A stretch of 49,289 bases of DNA from Gemmatimonadota bacterium (GTDB lineage Bacteria; Gemmatimonadota; Gemmatimonadetes; Gemmatimonadales; GWC2-71-9). Under the pieces are notes generated by a model. The model was given only the letters and a program-made list of their open reading frames with translations, was not told the DNA's origin and searched no databases. Location of the stretch: assembly GCA_036679645.1 (NCBI GenBank), contig JAZDCY010000025.1:1-49289 (forward strand), written 5' to 3'. This document shows, in pieces, positions 1 through 8,663 of the stretch (position 1 is its first letter; every line of letters starts with the position of its first letter). A program made the position numbers and the translations under genes.

Positions 1-29
1 TCTCCGTGCCGTACGGCAACGTCACCGTA

Positions 30-130
30 TCAGGAACGCGGTCCGTGCACCCGGATTGCCAGCTCCAGCACCGACTCCCAACCGCGAAGGTGCCTCGCCG
101 TTTCCCACGAACAGTCCAGGTACCGCGGCG
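30..130 (-). pseudogene. 3' fragment of the regulator at 6789-7742 (also at 2144-2229 and 4720-4820)
   Basis: Translates RYLDCSWETARHLRGWESVLELAIRVHGPRS*, matching RYLGCSWETARHLRGW near 7060-7110. Confidence 0.8.
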
Positions 131-161
131 TCACGGGCCGACTAGAGGCGCAGCGCCGACA

Positions 162-200
162 TTGCCGTTGGGCAACGTCACTGCCATTGCCGTCTGGCAA
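162..200. promoter_or_regulatory. Pair of TTGCC-N4-GGCAA palindromes 25 bp apart (a third at 6-19), with an overlapping minus-strand sigma54-like motif at 172-186
   Basis: TTGCCgttgGGCAA (162-175) and TTGCCgtctGGCAA (187-200); minus strand reads TGGCAG-tgacg-TTGC; same layout in other units. Confidence 0.6.
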
Positions 201-245
201 CCGGATGGGCTCCCGTGCCGGCGTTCTATGGACACTCTTCATCCC

Positions 246-331
246 ATGGAACTACCGAAGGTCGGGGTGGTGCAATCACGAGCACGGACACCGTGGATTT
301 CTTGCTCGCCGTCCTGGGCGTCAGGCGCTGA
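246..331 (+). pseudogene. Internally deleted thioredoxin-like gene (~454 bp missing relative to 2359-2901)
   Basis: ATG-ELPK (cf. GTG-QLPK at 2359) joined out of frame to GRGGAITSTDTVDFLLAVLGVRR* (cf. GRGGAITRTETVDSMLAALGVVRP*). Confidence 0.8.
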
Positions 332-369
332 TTGGCGAGCTGTTTCACCTCACACGCACGGAGGTCAAG

Positions 370-576
370 ATGAAACGCACACTCACGCGCACTATCCGTC
401 TTGCCGCGATCCTGGGGGTCGTCGCGGCACTCAGCTTCGGTGTCCAGCAAGCCGTGGCATCGTCGGCTACGACGAACTCCACCTCATGTACCTGTACATT
501 CCCCAACAATGGTGAATGTACCGATTGCTGTCAGGGGCCGGGGTTCTGCACTACGGCGGGGTTCTGCCTCTGCTAG
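370..576 (+). CDS. Secreted 8-Cys defensin-like peptide precursor, copy 1 (68 aa)
   Basis: GGAGG RBS; Sec-type signal ending QQAVA; core CTCTFPNNGECTDCCQGPGFCTTAGFCLC; two paralogs with identical Cys spacing. Confidence 0.9.
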   Translation: MKRTLTRTIRLAAILGVVAALSFGVQQAVASSATTNSTSCTCTFPNNGECTDCCQGPGFCTTAGFCLC

Positions 577-585
577 AGTATTTCT

Positions 586-628
586 GACAGAGAGGGGCCG
601 GCTTCCACGGAAATCGGCCCCTCTTGTC
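586..628. terminator. Hairpin between convergent peptide and lipoprotein genes
   Basis: AGAGGGGCCG...CGGCCCCTCT stem; equivalent hairpins in the other units. Confidence 0.7.
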
Positions 629-645
629 TGTCACTCTCTCAGGTT

Positions 646-2019
646 CTAGCGGACGCGCCCGGGCGTCAGCGAGTCAATTCTCTCGAAGTCCCGCGCGGAG
701 GTCTTCGTCCGTTGGAGCAGTATCTGCCCGCCAAACAACCCGAGCGATTTCCGCGCGATGGAGTAGTACCCCTCACCATCGTTGAAACGCCCACGCTGGA
801 GATCGAACACAGGACTGATACTCTGCGCACAGTACTTCTCGTCCCCTCCCAACGGATCGGAGATGCTGCGAGCGGCGATGGACGTGAACACGTCCAGAAT
901 CCGCTCGCGGGGAATCCGCGGGATGGAATTATTATAGTTTCCGGGCCGCATGAAGGGGACCGTGGTGAGATCCACCGTGTCCGCGACGAAGAAGATGGCT
1001 CCGAGGTCCAGGCGGAAAATCATGCCGCGGCCGAGGAACGATAGGAACTCCTCGACGATCGTCATCGTATTAGGCACGGCTGGATTATCGACGTCGGCCG
1101 AGCCGACGGACTCGAAACGCGCGTTTGCGAGGTTCGGGAGCCGACTATCCACCGCGCTGTGGTCAATGGCGTCGGTGGCGATCACGGCCGCGGTTCCTGG
1201 TGCCAACGGATACTGGGTCCCGGTGCCCGGAAGCCGAATGAGGTTTGGCGACCACAGCCCGGCCGAATCCGTCTGCCACTGCACCGTCAGCGAGCAGGGA
1301 AAAAAGCCCCGAGCTCCTTGCCCGAAGTCTCGGAGCCACAGAGGTCCGAACCCCACGAGCTTCCCGTCGAGATAGATCGTCGTATCGGCGTTGTTGTACA
1401 GCTCCAAGTAAGTTGCGTTCACGTACGAGTTGTCGTTGATGAAGGGCCAGCTGAAGTAGATCTCACTGATCACGAGCGAGCCGCGCCGCCCGGCGCTCGC
1501 GTTCAGCGCCACAGTCCGTTCCGGAGCCCGCAGCGTCACCACACCCCCTCCCGCAAACCCCGTCACGTCCTTGAGCTCCGGCCGCAACCGCGCTCGCTCC
1601 TCGGCCGTCAGCAGCCGCAACACCGACACGTCCCACGTCCCCGGCAAGAGGTCCGTGAACCGTACCTCCCCTGCCGAGTCCGTCACGCCGGCCACCTGAT
1701 CCGACGAGCCCCGGCGGCTCGCCTCCACTTGCCCGTCCGCCAGCGGGCCCTGGCTCCACCCGAGATCCTGGAACAGCGGCACGTCGCTGGAACTCTGTGC
1801 CACGGCCCGCGCCGTCACGACGAGCGCCGCCCGCTGCACGTTCCCGCCCGTAGTGTCCCGGCCCGAGGTGTCACGGGGCATCGTGCCAGTGGTATCGCTT
1901 CCTACGGAATCAGGGGGAGGAGGCGTGACCAGCCGCAACTCGGGGTTGCAGGCCGCGAACAGCCCGCCCGCTGCAACCGCGAGCCCGGCCAGCAGGAGGC
2001 CGGTACGGCATTGAGACAT
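646..2019 (-). CDS. DUF4876-like (lamin-tail-like) lipoprotein, copy 1 (457 aa)
   Basis: GGAGG before ATG 2019; lipobox LFAAC; motifs LVISEIYF, YLELYNNADTTIYLDG, YPLAPG, ATDAIDH, DVDNPAVPN; N-terminal prealbumin/carboxypeptidase-regulatory-like segment (VTDSAGEVRFTDLLPGTW). Confidence 0.8.
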   Translation of the reverse strand: MSQCRTGLLLAGLAVAAGGLFAACNPELRLVTPPPPDSVGSDTTGTMPRDTSGRDTTGGNVQRAALVVTARAVAQSSSDVPLFQDLGWSQGPLADGQVEASRRGSSDQVAGVTDSAGEVRFTDLLPGTWDVSVLRLLTAEERARLRPELKDVTGFAGGGVVTLRAPERTVALNASAGRRGSLVISEIYFSWPFINDNSYVNATYLELYNNADTTIYLDGKLVGFGPLWLRDFGQGARGFFPCSLTVQWQTDSAGLWSPNLIRLPGTGTQYPLAPGTAAVIATDAIDHSAVDSRLPNLANARFESVGSADVDNPAVPNTMTIVEEFLSFLGRGMIFRLDLGAIFFVADTVDLTTVPFMRPGNYNNSIPRIPRERILDVFTSIAARSISDPLGGDEKYCAQSISPVFDLQRGRFNDGEGYYSIARKSLGLFGGQILLQRTKTSARDFERIDSLTPGRVR

Positions 2020-2273
2020 GATTGCCTCCGGAACGACGTGGAGCTTCCGTATACTGATACCGCCGCATCGCCGGCCGCAAGAGGTACCGGCCCGCCGTCC
2101 GGCGCTCCGCGCGCTCTCCGTGCCGTACGGCAACGTCACCGCATCAGGAACGCGGTCCGTGCACCCGGATTGCCAGTTCTAGCACGGATTCCCAACCACG
2201 AAGGCGCCTCGCCGTTTGCCACGAACAGCGGAGGTGGCGCCGCGCCACCGGTCAAGAAGACCGTGCAGCCACG

Positions 2274-2312
2274 TTGCCGGTGAGCAATGTCGCTGCCGTT
2301 GCCGCCCGGCAA
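2274..2312. promoter_or_regulatory. Palindrome pair TTGCCggtgAGCAA / TTGCCgcccGGCAA (third at 2120-2133) with minus-strand sigma54-like CGGCAG-cgaca-TTGC
   Basis: Motif and 25-bp spacing are kept although the flank 2230-2273 is unrelated to the other units. Confidence 0.6.
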
Positions 2313-2358
2313 CCGGACGGGCTCACGTGCCGGCCCATTCCTGACATCTTGTCGTATC

Positions 2359-2901
2359 GTGCAGCTGCCAAAACTTCCCGCCCGCATGCTCGCGCGCGTC
2401 TTCGTCATGGCGGCCCTCCTCGGTGCCACCGGGCTCGTGGTCGTACTCGCGGCGCAGAGCCGGGAGTTGCGCGAGCAGGTTCGGCACCTACGCCGCGAGC
2501 GGCGGATTCTGCACGATGGAGTCGTCGTGCCCGCTTTCCGCACGACGGGGCGGCAGCTACTCATGATCCTCAACGCTGCATGCCTGTATTGCCGTGAGAC
2601 GCTACCGCATTGGAAAAACGTCCTCCGCCGCATCCGCGCCGACACCGTGGCGATTGAGCCTTACGCCGTCTCGCTCGACCCCGACAGTGTGGCGCGGGCG
2701 TACCTGACCGAGCACGCGTTCGACGTTCCCGTGATCCGGTTCCCGAACGAGCGGACCGCCGCGGTCTACCGCGCCATCGGTGTGCCGATCACCGTCGTGA
2801 TCGGTGCCGGCGGGCAGGTGCTCTACGGTCGGGGCGGAGCGATCACGAGAACGGAAACCGTGGATTCCATGCTCGCCGCCCTGGGTGTCGTCAGGCCCTG
2901 A
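2359..2901 (+). CDS. Membrane-anchored thioredoxin-fold protein (TlpA/ResA/MauD-like), CLYC active site
   Basis: N-terminal TM helix, CxxC, AVSLD, cis-Pro loop GVPITVVI; GTG start inferred from the ATG of the 246 paralog. Confidence 0.85.
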   Translation: MQLPKLPARMLARVFVMAALLGATGLVVVLAAQSRELREQVRHLRRERRILHDGVVVPAFRTTGRQLLMILNAACLYCRETLPHWKNVLRRIRADTVAIEPYAVSLDPDSVARAYLTEHAFDVPVIRFPNERTAAVYRAIGVPITVVIGAGGQVLYGRGGAITRTETVDSMLAALGVVRP

Positions 2902-2939
2902 TTGGCGAGCTGTTTCACATCACACGCACGGAGGTCAAC

Positions 2940-3146
2940 ATGAAACGCACACTCGCACGCACGGTCCGTCTGGCCGCAATCCTGGGGGTCGTCGGGGCTC
3001 TCAGCTTCGGTGTCCAGCAAGCCGTGGCCTCGTCGGCTACGACGAACTCCACCTCATGTACCTGTACGTTCCCTAATAACAGCGAATGCGATGACTGCTG
3101 CGGGGGAGATGGGTTCTGCCCTACGGCGGGGTTCTGCCTCTGCTAG
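2940..3146 (+). CDS. Secreted 8-Cys defensin-like peptide precursor, copy 2
   Basis: GGAGG RBS; signal peptide; core CTCTFPNNSECDDCCGGDGFCPTAGFCLC. Confidence 0.9.
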   Translation: MKRTLARTVRLAAILGVVGALSFGVQQAVASSATTNSTSCTCTFPNNSECDDCCGGDGFCPTAGFCLC

Positions 3147-3160
3147 AGTGTTTCTGAGAG

Positions 3161-3198
3161 GAGCGGCCGATTTCCGCTGAGGTGAAAATCGGCCGCTC
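3161..3198. terminator. Hairpin between convergent genes
   Basis: GAGCGGCCGATTT...AAATCGGCCGCTC. Confidence 0.7.
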
Positions 3199-3221
3199 TT
3201 GACTCTCAGTCTTTCCAGATT

Positions 3222-4595
3222 CTATGGGACCCGCCCGGGCGTCAGCGAGTCAACCCGTTCGAAATCCCGGGCCGAGGTCTTCGTGCGCAGCAGCAGGACG
3301 CGCCCGTCGAAGACGCCGAGGCTTTTCCGCGCGACGGAGTAGTACCCCTCACCATCATTGAAACGCCCACGCTGGAAATCGAACACGGGACTGATACTCT
3401 GCGCGCAGTACTTCTCGTCTCCTCCCAACGGATCCGAGATGCTGCGAGCGGCGATGGACGTGAACACGTCCAGAATCCGCTCGCGGGGAATGCGCGGAAT
3501 GGTGTTGTTGTAGGTTCCGGGACGCATCCAGGGCACCGCCGTCAGGTTCACAGGGTCCGCGACGAAGAAGATGGACCCGGTTGACACGCGGAAAATCACG
3601 CCGCGGCCCAAGAAGGTCAGAAACTCCTGTACGACGATGGTTGCGTTCGGCACCGAGGGATTGTCCACATCGGTCGAGCCAATCGACTCGAACCGCGCGT
3701 TCGTGAGGTTCGGTAGCCGGGCGTCCACCGCGCTGTGGTCAATGGCGTCGGTCGCTATCACGGCAGCGGCTCCAGGGGCCAGCGGATACTGCGTCCCGCC
3801 GCCGGGAAGCCTGATCAGGTTCGGCGACCACAGCCCGGCCGAATCGGTCTGCCACTGTACCGTGAGCGAACAGGGAAAGAACCCGCGCTGTGTTTGTCCG
3901 AAGTCTCGGAGCCAGGCAGGTCCCTTCCCCACGAGCTTCCCGTCGAGATAGATCGTGGTGTCGCTATTGTTGTAGAGTTCCAGATACGTGGCGTTCACGT
4001 ACGAGTTGTCGTTGATGAAGGGCCAGCTAAAGTAGATCTCGCTGATCACCAGCGAGCCGCGCCGCCCAGCGATCGCAAGCAGCGGTACCGTCCTTTCCGG
4101 AGCTCGCAGCGTCGCGTCCCTCGCCCCCGCGAACCCCGTCACGTCCCGCAGCTCCGGCCGCAGCCGCGCTCGCTCCTCCGGCGTCAGCAGCCGCAGCACC
4201 GATACGTCCCACGTCCCCGGCAAGAGTTCGGCGAACCGTACCTGCCCCGCCGAGTCCGTGACGCCGGCCACCTGATCCGAGGAGGCCCGGCGGCTAGCCT
4301 CCACCTGCCCGCCCACCAACGGCCCCTCGCTCCACCCCAGATCCTGGAGTAGCTGAAAGTCGCTGGAACTCTGCGCCACGATCCTTGCCGTCACGACGAG
4401 CGTCGCCCGCTGCACGTTCCCGCCCGTCGTGTCCTGGCTCGACGTATCACCGGGCATCGTGCCCGTCGTATCGCTGCTAAGCGAATCTGGGGGTGGAGGC
4501 GTGACTAGCCGCAGCTCGGGGTTACAGGCCGCCAACAACCCGCCCGCGGCAACCGCGAGCCCGGCCAGCAGGAGGCCGGTACGGCATTGAGACAT
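3222..4595 (-). CDS. DUF4876-like lipoprotein, copy 2 (457 aa)
   Basis: Close paralog of 646-2019; lipobox LLAAC. Confidence 0.8.
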   Translation of the reverse strand: MSQCRTGLLLAGLAVAAGGLLAACNPELRLVTPPPPDSLSSDTTGTMPGDTSSQDTTGGNVQRATLVVTARIVAQSSSDFQLLQDLGWSEGPLVGGQVEASRRASSDQVAGVTDSAGQVRFAELLPGTWDVSVLRLLTPEERARLRPELRDVTGFAGARDATLRAPERTVPLLAIAGRRGSLVISEIYFSWPFINDNSYVNATYLELYNNSDTTIYLDGKLVGKGPAWLRDFGQTQRGFFPCSLTVQWQTDSAGLWSPNLIRLPGGGTQYPLAPGAAAVIATDAIDHSAVDARLPNLTNARFESIGSTDVDNPSVPNATIVVQEFLTFLGRGVIFRVSTGSIFFVADPVNLTAVPWMRPGTYNNTIPRIPRERILDVFTSIAARSISDPLGGDEKYCAQSISPVFDFQRGRFNDGEGYYSVARKSLGVFDGRVLLLRTKTSARDFERVDSLTPGRVP

Positions 4596-4851
4596 GATTG
4601 CCTCCGGAACGACGTGGAGCTTCCGCATACTGATACCGTCGCATCGCCGGCCGCAAGGGGTAGCCGCACGTCGTCGGGCGCCCCGTGCGGTCTCCGTGCC
4701 GTACGGCAACGTCACCGCATCAGGAACGCGGTCCGCGCACCCGGATTGCCAGCTCCAGCACTGACTCCCAACCGCGCAGGCATCTTGCCGTTTCCCACGA
4801 ACAGTCCAGGTACCGCGGCCTCACAGGCCGACTAGAGGCGCAGCGCCGACA

Positions 4852-4890
4852 TTGCCGTTGGGCAACGTCACTGCCATTGCCGCCTGGCAA
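4852..4890. promoter_or_regulatory. Palindrome pair TTGCCgttgGGCAA / TTGCCgcctGGCAA (third at 4696-4709) with sigma54-like motif
   Basis: Same layout as 162-200. Confidence 0.6.
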
Positions 4891-4936
4891 CCGGACGGGC
4901 TCACGTGCCGGCCCATTCCTGACATCTTGTCGTATA

Positions 4937-5480
4937 GTGCAGCTGCCCAAACTTCCCGCCCGCATGCTCACGCGCGTCTTCGTCTTGGCGGCGCTGCTTG
5001 GTGGTACCGGACTCGTGGTCGTACTCGCGGCGCAGAGCCGGGAGTTGCGCGAGCAGGTTCGGCACCTACGCCGCGAGCGGCGGATTCTGCACGATGGAGT
5101 CGTCGTGCCCGCTTTCCGCACGACGCGGGCGCCAGTTGCTCATGATCTTCAACGCCGCATGCCCGTATTGCCTCGAGACGCTGCCGTATTGGAAGAACGT
5201 CGTCCGACGCATCCGCGCCAACACCGTGACGATTGAGCCTTACGCAGTCTCGCTCGACCCCGACAGTGTGGCGCGGGCGTACCTGACCGAGCACGCGTTC
5301 GACGTTCCCGCGATCCGGTTCCCGAACGAGCGGACCGCCGCCGTCTACCGCGCCATCGGTGTGCCGATCACTGTCGTGATCGGAGCCGGGGGGCAAGTGC
5401 TCTACGGCCGGGGCGGAGCGATCACGAGAACGGAAACAGTGGATTCCCTACTCGCCGTGCTGGGCATAGTCAGGCCCTGA
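4937..5480 (+). pseudogene. Thioredoxin-like gene, CPYC site, +1 frameshift near 5126 (may be a sequencing error)
   Basis: acgacg-C-gggcgccag versus acgacg-gggcggcag in the 2359 copy; 544 nt versus 543 nt. Confidence 0.75.
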
Positions 5481-5523
5481 CGGGCGCGTCCATCACCCTC
5501 AACTTCCTTATACGGAGGTTATC

Positions 5524-5730
5524 ATGAAACGTACACTCACCCGCACGCTTCGTCTGGTCGCGGTTCTGGGGGTTCTCGCGGCGCTCAGCTTCGGCGTCCA
5601 GGAAGCCGTGGCATCGTCGGCGACGCAGGACTCCGCCACGTGTCACTGTCAGTTCCCCGACAACAGTCCGTGCCTCGGGTGCTGTGGCGGACCCGGCTTC
5701 TGCACGACCGCAAACATCTGCATTTGCTAG
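5524..5730 (+). CDS. Secreted 8-Cys defensin-like peptide precursor, copy 3 (most divergent)
   Basis: GGAGG RBS; core CHCQFPDNSPCLGCCGGPGFCTTANICIC; all 8 Cys kept. Confidence 0.9.
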   Translation: MKRTLTRTLRLVAVLGVLAALSFGVQEAVASSATQDSATCHCQFPDNSPCLGCCGGPGFCTTANICIC

Positions 5731-5745
5731 GACGTACTCCCAGGA

Positions 5746-5781
5746 GAGCGGGGCCGACTCCGGTGGAAATCGGCCCCGCTC
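5746..5781. terminator. Hairpin between convergent genes
   Basis: GAGCGGGGCCGA...TCGGCCCCGCTC. Confidence 0.7.
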
Positions 5782-5802
5782 GACTCTCAGTCTTTGCAGA
5801 TT

Positions 5803-6993
5803 CTAGGGGACGCGCCCATCTTCGTGCGTTGCAGCAGTATCTGCCCGCCAAACAACCCGAGTGACTTGCGCGCGATAGCGTAGAAGTCGTCGCCGTCGGC
5901 GAAGCGTCCTTCTTGCAGGTCAAAAACCTCGTTGATGAAGTTCTCGCAGTACTTCGCACCCCCGACCCCGTCCGTGATTCGTCGCGTGGCCTTGGATGAG
6001 AAGACGTCGAGGATTGCCTGCCGAGGGATCCGCGGGATGGAATTATTGTATTGTCCGGGCCGCATCCAGGGCACCGTCGTGAGATCCACCGTATCCGCCA
6101 CAAAATAGATGGTACCTAGGGTATTGCTGAAGATGATTCCCCGGCCGAGAAACGTTAGGAACTCTTGCACCACGATAGTGGCGTTTGGCACAGACGGATT
6201 GTCCACGTCGGCCGAGCCGATTGACTCGAACCGCGCGTTGGCAAGGTTCGGGAGCCGACTATCCACCGTGCTGTGGTCAATGGCGTCGGTGGCGATCACG
6301 GCCGCTGCCCCGGGCGCCAGGGGATACTGTGTCCCGCTGCCGGGAAGCCGGAGCAGTTCGGGTGACCAAAGCCCTAGCGAGTCGTTTTGCCACTGCTGCG
6401 TCAACGAGCAGGGAAAGAATCCGCGTTGAGTGTCCCCAAAATCCCAGAACCAGAATGGTCCCCTTCCGACGAGCTTTCCGTCCAGATAGATCGTGGTATC
6501 GCTGTTGTTGTACAGTTCGATATAGGTGGCGTTGAAGTACACGTTATCGTTGATGAAGGGCCAGGTGAAGAAGATCTCGCTGATCACGAGCGAGCCGCGC
6601 CGCCCGGCGCTCGCGTTCAACGCCACCGTCCGTTCCGGAGCCCGCAGCGTCACCACCCCCCCTCCCGCAAACCCCGTCACGTCCTTAAGCTCCCGCCTCC
6701 ACTTGCCCGTCCGCCAGCGGGCCCTGGCTCCACCCCAGATCCTGGAACAGCGGCACGTCGCTGGAACTCTGTGCCACGGCCCGCGCCGTCACGACGAGCG
6801 CCGCCCGCTGCACGTTCCCACCCGTCGTGTCCTGGCCTGACGTATCACCGGGCATCGTGCCCGTCGTATCGCTGCTAACCGAATCTGGGGGTGGAGGCGT
6901 GACCAGCCGCAGCTCGGGGTTACAGGCCGCGAACAGCCCGCCCGCGGCAACCGCGAGCCCGGCCAGCAGGAGACCGGTACGGCATTGGGACAT
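5803..6993 (-). pseudogene. DUF4876-like lipoprotein, copy 3, broken by ~140-bp (near 6693) and ~40-bp (near 5817) deletions
   Basis: Alignment by eye to copy 1; N-terminus lies in ORF 6685-7263 and the body in ORF 5787-6680. Confidence 0.8.
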
Positions 6994-7742
6994 GATCGCC
7001 TCCGGGACGGCGTGAAGCTTCCGCATACTGATACCGTCGCATCGCCGGCCGCAAGGGGTACCCAACCGCGAAGGTGCCTCGCCGTTTCCCACGAACAGCC
7101 CAAATACCGCCGCGCCCGAGTATGCCACGTTCGTGGGTTGGTGGTGTCTGTACCACTCCAGCCCGCGGCGCGCAGGGCCATCCGGGCCACGATGCGCCAG
7201 TCCCGGGCGTTCCATCGGCTGAGCCGCGCGAGCCGCCTGCTGTAGTAGGAGCTGGAGCGACATGATGACGGAGTCGAACTCACGACGGCCGCGAATTGTT
7301 CCGCCAGCAAGCCTCCCAGCTCGTCCGAGCGGAGTCGCAATGCGACGAACCGGGCCAGCACCGTCGGAGGCGGAACGGGACGCGCGTCGACCGCGCGAAG
7401 GACGCGCTCGGGCCGAAGCGGAACGCCCACGGGCAGATCATCTCGGGCGAGTACGTGGCTCCAGTCGGGTATGCAGTCGATCAGATGCTCGAGCAAGGCG
7501 GGCCGGGAAGACTGGAACAGACACGGCACGATCCAAGGCCATTGGTGACGTCGAACCACCAGCGTCGCGGTGCCGGCAAGTGCGTCCGGTGCACTCCCCC
7601 TTCCATCGGCACACAGAATCGTGCCAACTTCGGGCTGGCCTTGAGCTGCGTGGGCTGCCGCGGCCAGCGACCGGTATGGAGGGGTCATCACGTACACGTT
7701 GGCCTGCGAGGGCCACGGAACCGAAAGCGGCGGGGCGCTCAT
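6789..7742 (-). CDS. Putative transcriptional regulator with a degenerate AraC-like C-terminal HTH; native stop removed by a ~104-bp deletion at 7060
   Basis: GGAG RBS before ATG 7742; SYYSRRLARLSRWNARDWRIVARM...RTWHTRARRYLGCS resembles a two-HTH AraC region; the intact 3' end survives in the duplicated fragments. Confidence 0.45.
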   Translation of the reverse strand: MSAPPLSVPWPSQANVYVMTPPYRSLAAAAHAAQGQPEVGTILCADGRGSAPDALAGTATLVVRRHQWPWIVPCLFQSSRPALLEHLIDCIPDWSHVLARDDLPVGVPLRPERVLRAVDARPVPPPTVLARFVALRLRSDELGGLLAEQFAAVVSSTPSSCRSSSYYSRRLARLSRWNARDWRIVARMALRAAGWSGTDTTNPRTWHTRARRYLGCSWETARHLRGWVPLAAGDATVSVCGSFTPSRRRSCPNAVPVSCWPGSRLPRAGCSRPVTPSCGWSRLHPQIRLAAIRRARCPVIRQARTRRVGTCSGRRSS

Positions 7743-7782
7743 GGTCACACTCCAACAACGGCATCCGCCGAAAAATATCCTG

Positions 7783-7795
7783 CCCCCCCCCCCCC
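7783..7795 (-). repeat. G13 homopolymer ~40 bp upstream of the regulator start
   Basis: 13 consecutive C on the + strand. Confidence 0.85.
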
Positions 7796-7907
7796 TCGCA
7801 CAAGAGCGCGTGCCCCTGTGGGAAGGGAATCGACTAGGGCGCCCCGACGGGCCCAGCTTTGTTCGATGTGAACCAGCGTTCACAGTGATGCGCGCGGAAG
7901 GCGAGAC

Positions 7908-8663
7908 TCAGCGGCAGGACGTGTTGTCGCTCGTCACGTACATGCGCTGACCGTCCACGTAGGTCCCCCCGTCCCGGTACTCCAGCAGCGCCTGGCCGAC
8001 GTTCCCGTTATGCCAGCGCAGCTCAATGCCCACGATGTTGCCCTGTTCGACGATTCTCCAGGTGCCCGCGCCTCCGTCGCTTCCTCCGCTGTACCCCCCC
8101 GTACCGCCACATCGACGCTGACGGAGCTGGACCCCGAATAGAAGAAGCGCCCATCGCTGCAGAGGTCGTACTCCTCCCGCGCGCTATAGCCGCCCGTACC
8201 GCCCGAACTCGAGTAGCTCTCGATCCGCGTGACCCTCTTGCCCGCCAGATGCGCGAGCCATTCCCGTCCCATCTGGGAGAGTTGCTGTTGCCCTGCCTGG
8301 CCCTGACCGGGCGGCTGCGTTGCCGGGGCGGGTTGCCGTGCTCCGGCAGCCTGCCGGCGGAGTTGCAGTGTTTGCCCATCTACAGTACATGACGAGCAGA
8401 TCGCCCTGCAGGGCCGCGGTCCAGGGATACGTCGTCCCCTGCGCCGAGTAGCTTCCCTCGAGACCGTTCATGGTCTGCCGGGCGGTGACTGGGAACCGTT
8501 GCCCCTGCAAGACGGCCACTCCGCTGTACCCACCCCGCGCGGCCTGGAGTTGCAGAACGAGCACGTCACTACTGAACGTCCCGACATACGGATCACTCTG
8601 TGCTGCCACGCTCCCCAGCGGTGACGCCAAGGTGAGAATGAGGATGACGGTGGGGACACGCAT
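7908..8663 (-). CDS. Secreted hypothetical protein with two apparent frameshifts (~8385, ~8105)
   Basis: Signal peptide MRVPTVILILTLASPLGSVAAQ; frames join into GREWLAHLAGKRVTRIESYSS...LCSDGRF...GTWRIV...TYVDGQRMYVTSDNTSCR*. Confidence 0.65.

Follow-up and report, generated by a model that had tools for sequence, protein, structure and literature searches.

What would a bacterium do with a small, secreted, cysteine-rich peptide that it encodes several times in a row, each time between a thioredoxin-like protein and a large lipoprotein? The question is raised by the left end of contig JAZDCY010000025.1 from a Gemmatimonadota bacterium (assembly GCA_036679645.1). The window analyzed here is that entire contig (C19; 49,289 nucleotides), one of 100 in the 4.05-Mb assembly, and the array continues past its left end. 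An earlier interpretation made from the letters alone, which we call the sequence-only reading, had described at least three units here and taken each for a cassette of peptide, folding catalyst and cognate lipoprotein, diversifying like a toxin-immunity or signal-receptor array. Our analysis identifies the module as one of the DUF4876-TonB-dependent transporter (TBDT)-DUF6850 kind, extended by polymorphic acidic peptides of predicted defensin fold and by their likely folding enzyme. As to its purpose, we tentatively favor a self-made polymorphic peptide ligand that would be caught by a cognate lipoprotein lid on a shared TBDT, most likely as a strain-specific signal, a proposal to which we give slightly less than an even chance.

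Three units of the previously described ~2.58 kb are borne out in bases 1-7060 (repeat spacing 2576 and 2538 bp). Each reads thioredoxin-like gene, peptide gene, hairpin and converging DUF4876 lipoprotein gene, the first two genes on the forward strand and the last on the reverse. Unit 1 comprises a thioredoxin-like gene at 246..331, peptide 1 at 370..576 (Sec-type leader and an eight-cysteine core with chlorotoxin-type spacing), a hairpin at 586..637 (folding z -4.0) that is likely a bidirectional terminator, and lipoprotein 1 at 646..2019 (457 aa, with a lipobox cysteine at position 24, a prealbumin-like N domain and an LTD/DUF4876 domain). In unit 2, a membrane-anchored CxxC protein resembling ResA, TlpA and MauD (2386..2901) is followed by eight-cysteine peptide 2 (2940..3146), a hairpin (3155..3209; z -4.5) and a second 457-aa lipoprotein with 86% identity to the first (3222..4595). 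Unit 3 carries a thioredoxin-like gene with the motif CPYC (4964..5480), eight-cysteine peptide 3 (5524..5730), a hairpin (5745..5783; z -2.8) and lipoprotein 3 (5803..6993). Convergence across a hairpin, as first described, is a property of all three units. The claim of a CxxC oxidoreductase ~40 bp ahead of an eight-cysteine peptide holds for the spacing in units 2 and 3 (38 and 43 bp, stop to start), but the gene as assembled is truncated in unit 1 and frameshifted in unit 3. The hairpins between the genes have no T runs and went unnoticed in a terminator scan; a sigma-70 promoter scan returned 0 sites.

Is the trio peculiar to this contig? A locus scan with a single sequence gave no relatives, but alignment-based scans did: an 84-row lipoprotein alignment fetched 59 genome loci (the best 80 of 126 matches) and 70 metagenome loci (the best 80 of 158), 129 in all with overlaps kept, a few being the same or adjoining stretches. 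Among these lipoprotein loci a peptide gene was found at 93, a thioredoxin gene at 88 and both at 76, and thus the trio recurs in other genomes. Among the 64 loci that reach 8 kb, a peptide was encoded at 50, a thioredoxin at 52, a non-SusC TBDT at 56 and a barrel at 51, and 41 combined peptide, thioredoxin and TBDT. The order seen in this array (lipoprotein, then peptide and thioredoxin in inverted orientation, then TBDT) recurs at thirteen loci; a co-directional order occurs at ten, and ten carry at least two trios. Reordered units (peptide, thioredoxin, lipoprotein) were seen at L040, L041, L049, L076 and L127, and at L022 a beta-propeller gene lies between thioredoxin and peptide. Among the matches listed, the closest named relatives of the lipoprotein are Gemmatimonadales, and 56 of 58 named related loci belong to Gemmatimonadota. 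Across 401 genomes of that phylum, the lipoprotein occurs in 28 and the peptide in 18, with 15 common to both; leaving out the genome studied here, 14 of 17 peptide genomes have the lipoprotein where 1.1 would be expected, kin among them not being independent. The system was found on no viral contigs, and on plasmids only in three distant Bacteroidota records.

The same genome supplied the missing transporter. Contig C24 (1-6.3 kb) carries a fourth unit followed by a divergent TBDT and a DUF6850-like barrel, and the ends of C24 and C19 match across a ~540-bp repeat. A TonB receptor further left, which the sequence-only reading had raised as a possibility, was thus found with its barrel, outside the window and across a join drawn from those matching ends. 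The fourth-unit edge claimed at 1-130 fared less well, as bases ~30-130 are the 3' end of a regulator-like gene rather than core genes, although a fourth unit does exist on C24. Thioredoxin, peptide, lipoprotein, TBDT and barrel also stand together on C7 (76.8-83.6 kb), where the peptide is of the plant-defensin-like type B described below, C8 (90.5-98.3 kb) and C97 (4.5-12.4 kb), and each of the four other loci of the genome has its own TBDT and barrel. The peptide rule applied to the whole 4.05-Mb genome found 6 open reading frames (ORFs), all adjoining DUF4876 genes. The C97 barrel gene lies in two frames, and the C24 peptide gene is without its last ~18 codons in the assembly. A different cluster of secreted cysteine peptides was seen on C22 (77.9-82.9 kb), with two six-bladed beta-propeller-like proteins, a DsbA-like thioredoxin, small cysteine-rich exported peptides and a gene like those of helix-turn-helix (HTH) proteins.

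What the lipoprotein might do is suggested by its family. Lipoproteins 1 and 2 score 30.8 and 35.2 bits against PF16215 (DUF4876; cut-off 27.9), which confirms the family named in the sequence-only reading. A structural model of the lipoprotein (pLDDT 88) has the fold of BT_1938 (PDB 4Q1Z), with a Foldseek E of 1e-21, Z of 26.4 and a root-mean-square deviation (rmsd) of 2.6 over 253 residues; the runner-up reached Z 11.0. The lipobox Cys24 is kept in at least 90% of the 84 alignment rows, and 73 of the 84 have a lipobox-like motif. The lipoprotein belongs to a family whose members are predicted to cap TBDTs. DUF4876-TBDT pairs have been reported as virtually confined to Bacteroidota, with a predicted opening of ~20 Å and no reported phenotype or substrate, and a BT1938 homologue is cited as surface-exposed (Price et al. 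2023 preprint). Three Bacteroidota loci that we compared have DUF4876 with a related TBDT, and a recognizable barrel in two, but none matched the peptide or thioredoxin profiles.

The three window peptides are 68 aa long, have a Sec-type leader and eight cysteines, and share 68-88% mutual identity (68-71% for peptide 3 against the other two). They received no Pfam or NCBIfam name, and the ESM Atlas gave no match of at least 0.9 for the peptide. Small exported ORFs rich in cysteine were picked by rule; of the 139 so called, 14 lacked a terminal CxC and were removed, which left 125 peptides, 115 of them distinct. By cysteine arrangement these fall into type A (40; CxxCC, the type of the window), type B (66) and others (9). 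Eight cysteines are present in 98 of the 115, CxxxC plus a terminal CxC in 107, and a GxC gamma-core in 82, and all these features occur in each of the three window peptides. Beyond the cysteines and one or two glycines, no core position is conserved. In 97 of 115, the leader keeps an unusual FG motif before the predicted cleavage site, possibly the sign of a dedicated step of processing or hand-over. Odd nine-cysteine (L053, L057, L152) and six-cysteine (L031) subtypes were also seen, each tied to its own lipoprotein clade, and one 287-aa protein (P0215) combines a thioredoxin with a peptide precursor in one reading frame, possibly through a lost stop or an error.

The peptides are predicted to adopt the alpha-beta fold stabilized by cysteines (CS-alpha-beta) that defensins and chlorotoxins have. 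In the model of peptide 1 a helix (18-24) lies over CxxxC and a strand (35-37) at CxC, with a core pLDDT of 84-86; no structure match reached a Foldseek E of 0.001 or lower, and the weak matches, led by scorpion CS-alpha-beta peptides, reached Z 2.6 at best (rmsd 1.3 over 28 residues). Pfam Gamma-thionin matched 5 of 45 members (best E 1e-4) and Toxin_5 matched 2 of 45 (best E 0.035), the window peptide not among the latter. The type-A profile found chlorotoxins as its best solved matches, with all eight cysteines aligned (E 0.002), and the chlorotoxin spacing is present in 38 of 40 type-A cores compared with 2 of 20,000 shuffles. Plant defensins were the best matches of the type-B profile (E 0.002). 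These similarities rest largely on the cysteines, so that descent is unproven and they may reflect convergence. The peptide profile collected 1,020 clusters (50% identity) at E≤0.001, the weaker of which may include unrelated cysteine-rich proteins, and 152 at 1e-10.

A defensin fold brings killing to mind. In a toxin-immunity array the peptide would be a bacteriocin acting on relatives, perhaps entering by their TBDT, while the lipoprotein protects the producer. Such an array would explain polymorphic 1:1 pairs, lipoproteins found without peptides could be orphan immunity proteins, and CS-alpha-beta peptides are often antimicrobial, with actifensin as a bacterial case in the available text of PMC11561630. 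Against it, every one of the 115 cores carries a net negative charge (median -5; -2, -4 and -2 for window peptides 1, 2 and 3), as do 145 of 150 in an independent set of relatives, where one is positive, and the uniform negative charge of the 115 speaks against defensin-like killing. Moreover, the putative immunity protein, at 457 aa, belongs to a family of TBDT lids, producers retain the transporter that would admit the toxin, no dedicated exporter recurs at the 129 loci, and the myxobacterial defensin xanthusin-1 was inactive in the antimicrobial tests given in the text available from PMC11561630. By charge and gene context these peptides are not members of the antimicrobial defensins, and we judge a toxin-immunity role improbable.

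The third member of the trio, the thioredoxin-like protein, is membrane-anchored, with CxxC in 79 of 93 distinct sequences. The Redoxin/AhpC-TSA assignment suggested earlier was borne out in part: the C24 copy falls just over the AhpC-TSA cut-off (26.2 against 26 bits), but matches to MauD, StoA and ResA are weak, the best being 28 bits for MauD against a curated cut-off of 188.6.

Does the peptide have a partner in the lipoprotein next to it? The lipoprotein gene is the next one downstream of 114 of 125 peptide genes, and since both convergent (64) and co-directional (50) arrangements occur, the pairing survives inversion. On a FastTree phylogeny of 107 lipoproteins the cysteine type of the adjoining peptide changes 4 times and gene orientation 15 times, and lipoproteins from mixed arrays often cluster with those of other genomes that bear the same peptide subtype. 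In 61 trios the distance between peptide cores tracks that between lipoproteins (partial r 0.27) above that between the closer thioredoxins (0.15), a result matched in 0 of 500 permutations. Peptide and lipoprotein recur 1:1 in four arrays (L053, L057, L066, L152) that have no additional thioredoxins. In our judgement, contact of some kind between peptide and lipoprotein is quite probable. Were the thioredoxin-peptide pair and the lid-TBDT-barrel operon functionally uncoupled, having been joined once and linked since, each half might be expected alone, as it does occur, and distance correlations would be as modest as those seen; a pairing that outlasts inversions and reorderings, and arrays that repeat peptide with lipoprotein rather than whole blocks, make this extremely unlikely.

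Contact could also mean that the peptide stays in the envelope as a fixed subunit, docked on the lid or the barrel opening and setting specificity or gating a nutrient importer. Cognate pairing, purifying selection on the copies and the opening predicted for DUF4876-TBDT pairs all fit this idea, but lids work or persist without peptides at many loci and peptides occur without lids, so that we give it little credence. DUF4876-TBDT-barrel loci without peptide or thioredoxin genes, often with two or three lipoproteins, include L219-L223, L226, L044 and L048, and some of their lipoproteins are nearly identical to those of peptide-bearing loci. A separate clade of peptide-less lipoproteins was looked for and not seen: the trait changes 20 times on the tree compared with 23.7 in shuffles, and three "no peptide" loci held peptides that the rule had missed.

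The route out of the cell raises a further alternative, in which transport through the TBDT runs outward, as that of PopC through Oar does in Myxococcus, with the lipoprotein as a cargo-specific adaptor that passes the folded peptide on and the peptide's target elsewhere. An exit is required for a peptide folded in the periplasm, and the neighbors of the 129 loci include no fixed exporter or leader peptidase, with one mixed ABC cluster at 6 loci; TBDT-dependent secretion is known, as described in the available portions of PMC11658791 and PMC6434023. Such an export machine is nevertheless hard to reconcile with lipoprotein-TBDT-barrel loci that lack peptides and are scattered over the tree, with the three Bacteroidota loci devoid of peptide and thioredoxin by profile, with the surface exposure of the BT1938 homologue (Price et al. 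2023), or with thioredoxin and peptide genes found without the transporter set nearby. We consider it quite improbable.

The ligand proposal, which we prefer, can be set out as a series of steps, each of which we infer, from expression and disulfide formation through exit, binding, lid function and uptake to response. The peptide would be exported via Sec and would acquire four disulfides from the adjacent, co-transcribed, membrane-anchored thioredoxin. It would leave across the outer membrane, perhaps through the DUF6850 barrel, and once outside would be captured by the DUF4876 lipoprotein that its own unit encodes, acting as an exchangeable lid on the single TBDT of the locus. Uptake and a downstream response would follow, most likely to a strain-specific signal. 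Tandem duplication would add peptide-lid pairs to one transporter, so that a cell makes and reads several keys, and relatives with lids but without peptide genes would be listeners only. A signal is favored on three grounds: conservation is confined to the scaffold, several pairs come to share one transporter, and varied regulators adjoin some loci; a core conserved only at cysteines and glycines is what would be expected of an identity tag. The cassette of the sequence-only reading is thus supported in its trio and in its cognate pairing, its toxin-immunity branch appears weak, and its signal-receptor branch fits better once the TBDT is added to it.

The adjoining regulators are of several kinds. 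A zf-HC2 anti-sigma gene lies directly upstream of the TBDT at 6 of the 129 loci, all of one clade (L035, L036, L046, L072, L115, L116), divergent from thioredoxin, peptide and lipoprotein; an extracytoplasmic function (ECF) sigma gene precedes it in two of the six (L046, L072), and neither gene is found in the array of this genome. LuxR-type response regulators stand beside 5 loci.

Several observations weigh against a signal caught by its own lid. The neighboring regulators differ in kind and are missing from most loci. No N-terminal signaling (STN) domain, the feature looked for in TonB-dependent surface signaling of the FecIRA type, was matched in the two TBDTs scanned, which have CarboxypepD_reg, plug and barrel and of which none comes from the sigma-bearing clade. 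The correlation of peptide distance with the C-terminal part of the lipoprotein (0.29) and with the N-terminal part (0.32) is modest and not localised, and co-inheritance also follows from plain linkage, kin not being independent. Binding is not explained by complementary charges, since the lipoprotein's C-terminal part also carries a net negative charge (median -10.5). Positive or diversifying selection on the copies was not seen, in whole-region counts without site models. Three genomes have thioredoxin and peptide with no lipoprotein within the 10-16 kb fetched (L213/G151, L214/G274, L216/G289), and in G274 three peptides and two thioredoxins stand in tandem. For this array in particular, that C24 adjoins C19 is probable, and comes from matching ends. 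Lastly, Bacteroidota relatives of the transporter operon with DUF4876 and TBDT, PG1019-22 of P. gingivalis and BT3625-33 of B. thetaiotaomicron, the latter beside PepSY genes, are strongly induced by iron limitation, according to the available text of PMC10434189, and this points to nutrient uptake over signaling.

Nutrient uptake suggests a private carrier: the acidic peptide would bind a metal or another scarce ligand and be recaptured through its cognate lid and TBDT, in the manner of a hemophore or methanobactin, and variation would keep the good private. The iron response just described would be accounted for, as would the acidity of all 115 cores, and peptide-less lids would be cheaters. 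Sigma and anti-sigma genes ahead of the TBDT recall the fec and pyoverdine systems (as covered in the available text of PMC11658791), and at one Prevotella locus an insulinase-family protease and feoB adjoin. The peptides have no conserved metal ligand other than cysteine, however, and among the neighbors of the 129 loci no reductase, ABC importer, protease or modifying enzyme recurs and no iron-release gene is conserved. The binding step is the same as for a signal, and the cargo alone differs. We regard a nutrient carrier as rather unlikely.

Are the units of the array genuine copies? Synonymous divergence between them (pS) is 0.23-0.62, and one public sequencing run that contains the region (X1), possibly the source sample, yields separate error-free contigs covering parts of each unit, with no piece spanning the array. 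These results rule out an assembly duplicate, and also the collapse to one copy for which the sequence-only reading had allowed. Summed X1 contig depth is 428 over the lipoprotein 3' part and 104 over unique flank (~4x), a ratio not usable as copy number. The ratio of nonsynonymous to synonymous divergence (dN/dS) between units is 0.15-0.33, alike in leader, core and lipoprotein by whole-region counts, and the copies are old paralogs under purifying selection rather than the diversifying set once supposed.

As assembled, all three genes are open in unit 2 only. X1 contigs end at both breaks of lipoprotein 3 (5818/5819, 40 bp; 6693/6694, 140 bp) and then extend into the absent sequence, and an X1 loose end at 2548 extends into the 45-bp in-frame gap of thioredoxin 2 (2547/2548); all three breaks are assembly gaps. 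C24 starts exactly at the right-hand break of the 140-bp gap, as expected of an assembly-graph node. The frameshift in thioredoxin 3 (~5128) is probably a gap too, of 44 bp, because its left end is the same base as in thioredoxin 2; its right end is 1 base apart, and no X1 loose end was found there. Pseudogene decay of unit 3 was accordingly rejected for lipoprotein 3 and is doubtful for thioredoxin 3. Thioredoxin 1 retains its first ~4 and last ~24 codons, with ~450 bp absent at 259/260. An X1 contig runs from 259 into an intact thioredoxin start, but its letters equal the C24 copy. The deletion may be real or a gap, and the diverged remnant suggests that it is real.

At the right of the array lies the regulator-like gene (7061..7742, reverse strand), a member of a Gemmatimonadales family whose 3' end is absent at 7060/7061 in the assembly. 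This 3' end is copied into every spacer of the array (30..130, 2144..2245 and 4720..4820, all reverse strand) and marks the duplication breakpoint. An AraC-type HTH_18 match was obtained for 3 of 15 relatives (best E 3e-4), and the ESM Atlas gave no match of at least 0.9 for the protein. The idea that a regulator closes the array stands insofar as the gene is present at the array end with this weak match, but it is not a core component: the gene occurs at 1 of 129 outside lipoprotein loci, and of the 17 other genomes with the family (18 of 401 in the phylum) 2 also have the lipoprotein, while 8 of the 17 outside loci adjoin beta-propeller genes instead. A 13-C run at 7783-7795, ~40 bp upstream of the gene, is a possible slippage tract.

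Beyond this gene, bases 7934-8663 (reverse strand) apparently hold one exported-protein gene broken over at least two frames, neither piece of which matches Pfam. The rest of the window (8736-49289) is ordinary, with a D-serine dehydratase-like enzyme, a GAF/PAS hybrid kinase, a pyridoxal phosphate (PLP) decarboxylase, Hsp20, methyltransferases, UvrA, an FHA protein, PEP carboxykinase, an ABC-2/HlyD/TetR set, FtsEX with an M23 peptidase, LepA and a Ser/Thr kinase.

What would follow from the ligand proposal? DUF4876 lids and their TBDTs have been without a known substrate (Price et al. 2023), and the loci described here offer candidate ligands from adjoining genes, one for each lid, so that the substrate question comes down to testing pairs for binding, with the non-cognate pairs as ready controls. 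If the proposal is true, the defensin fold is used as a lock and key and not for killing. With these peptides the bacterial CS-alpha-beta set, which numbers 74 sequences in the available text of PMC11561630, grows by as many as 1,020 clusters (E≤0.001), and a chlorotoxin-framework type in bacteria bears on the origin of that scaffold. A dedicated folding enzyme with many natural scaffold variants could have practical use in producing disulfide peptides. A bolder form of the proposal, possible but more doubtful, is that Gemmatimonadota have a counterpart of plant self-recognition loci, with about a thousand lineages of defensin- and chlorotoxin-fold identity keys, each read by its own lid on a shared TBDT. 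In that case DUF4876 would gain its first ligand, a TBDT could be reprogrammed by swapping lids, and the chlorotoxin cysteine framework would be placed in bacteria.

How does the module compare with systems already known? The peptide-thioredoxin-DUF4876-TBDT combination is not described in the literature searched, most subscription journals and supplements lying outside that coverage. In Brassica the S-locus pair SCR/SRK has a defensin-fold peptide for its polymorphic key, and the gene of the receptor is linked to it. The likeness to it, and to the LURE pollen-tube attractants, is an analogy of logic, as the plant receptors are kinases with no homology to the proteins here. Chlorotoxin-type scorpion peptides (Toxin_5) and plant defensins (Gamma-thionin) share their cysteine frameworks with types A and B, respectively, whereas the peptides here are bacterial and acidic, and no activity on animals is implied.

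Closer in kind are the bacterial cis-defensins (xanthusin-1, classes I-V and actifensin), which have in common with our peptides a signal peptide, the pattern CxxxC...GxC...CxC and a predicted helix with strands, as given in the available text of PMC11561630; xanthusin-1 itself was among the profile matches (E 0.054). The peptides here differ in being mostly eight-cysteine, uniformly acidic and set in a fixed gene context. The survey in that paper covers three phyla, and its main text, in the part available, mentions no Gemmatimonad, chlorotoxin, thioredoxin or TonB; for Gemmatimonadota, the available text of PMC11651109 mentions ranthipeptides alone. The thioredoxin shares a membrane anchor and CxxC with the MauD, ResA/StoA, TlpA and BdbB-type oxidoreductases, but it falls far below every curated cut-off of the MauD, ResA and TlpA families, and it may act as an oxidase, an isomerase or a reductase.

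Methanobactin and HasA/HasR are product-plus-TBDT systems. The module resembles methanobactin (MbnA/MbnT/MbnIR) and HasA/HasR in tying a self-made ribosomal product to a dedicated TBDT, with sigma and anti-sigma genes ahead in some loci. It differs in having no recurring modifying enzymes or type I exporter and in a scaffold that is locked by disulfides and polymorphic, and its specificity seems to lie with the exchangeable lipoproteins and not with the transporter. The nearest relatives are the "alternative lid" TBDTs of Bacteroidota (BT1939/BT1938 and BT3633/BT3632; Price et al. 2023), with which the module shares the lipoprotein fold, the DUF6850-type barrel and a related TBDT (323 bits to our TBDT profile). 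To that set, the loci described here add a thioredoxin and a secreted peptide of predicted CS-alpha-beta fold, often in arrays.

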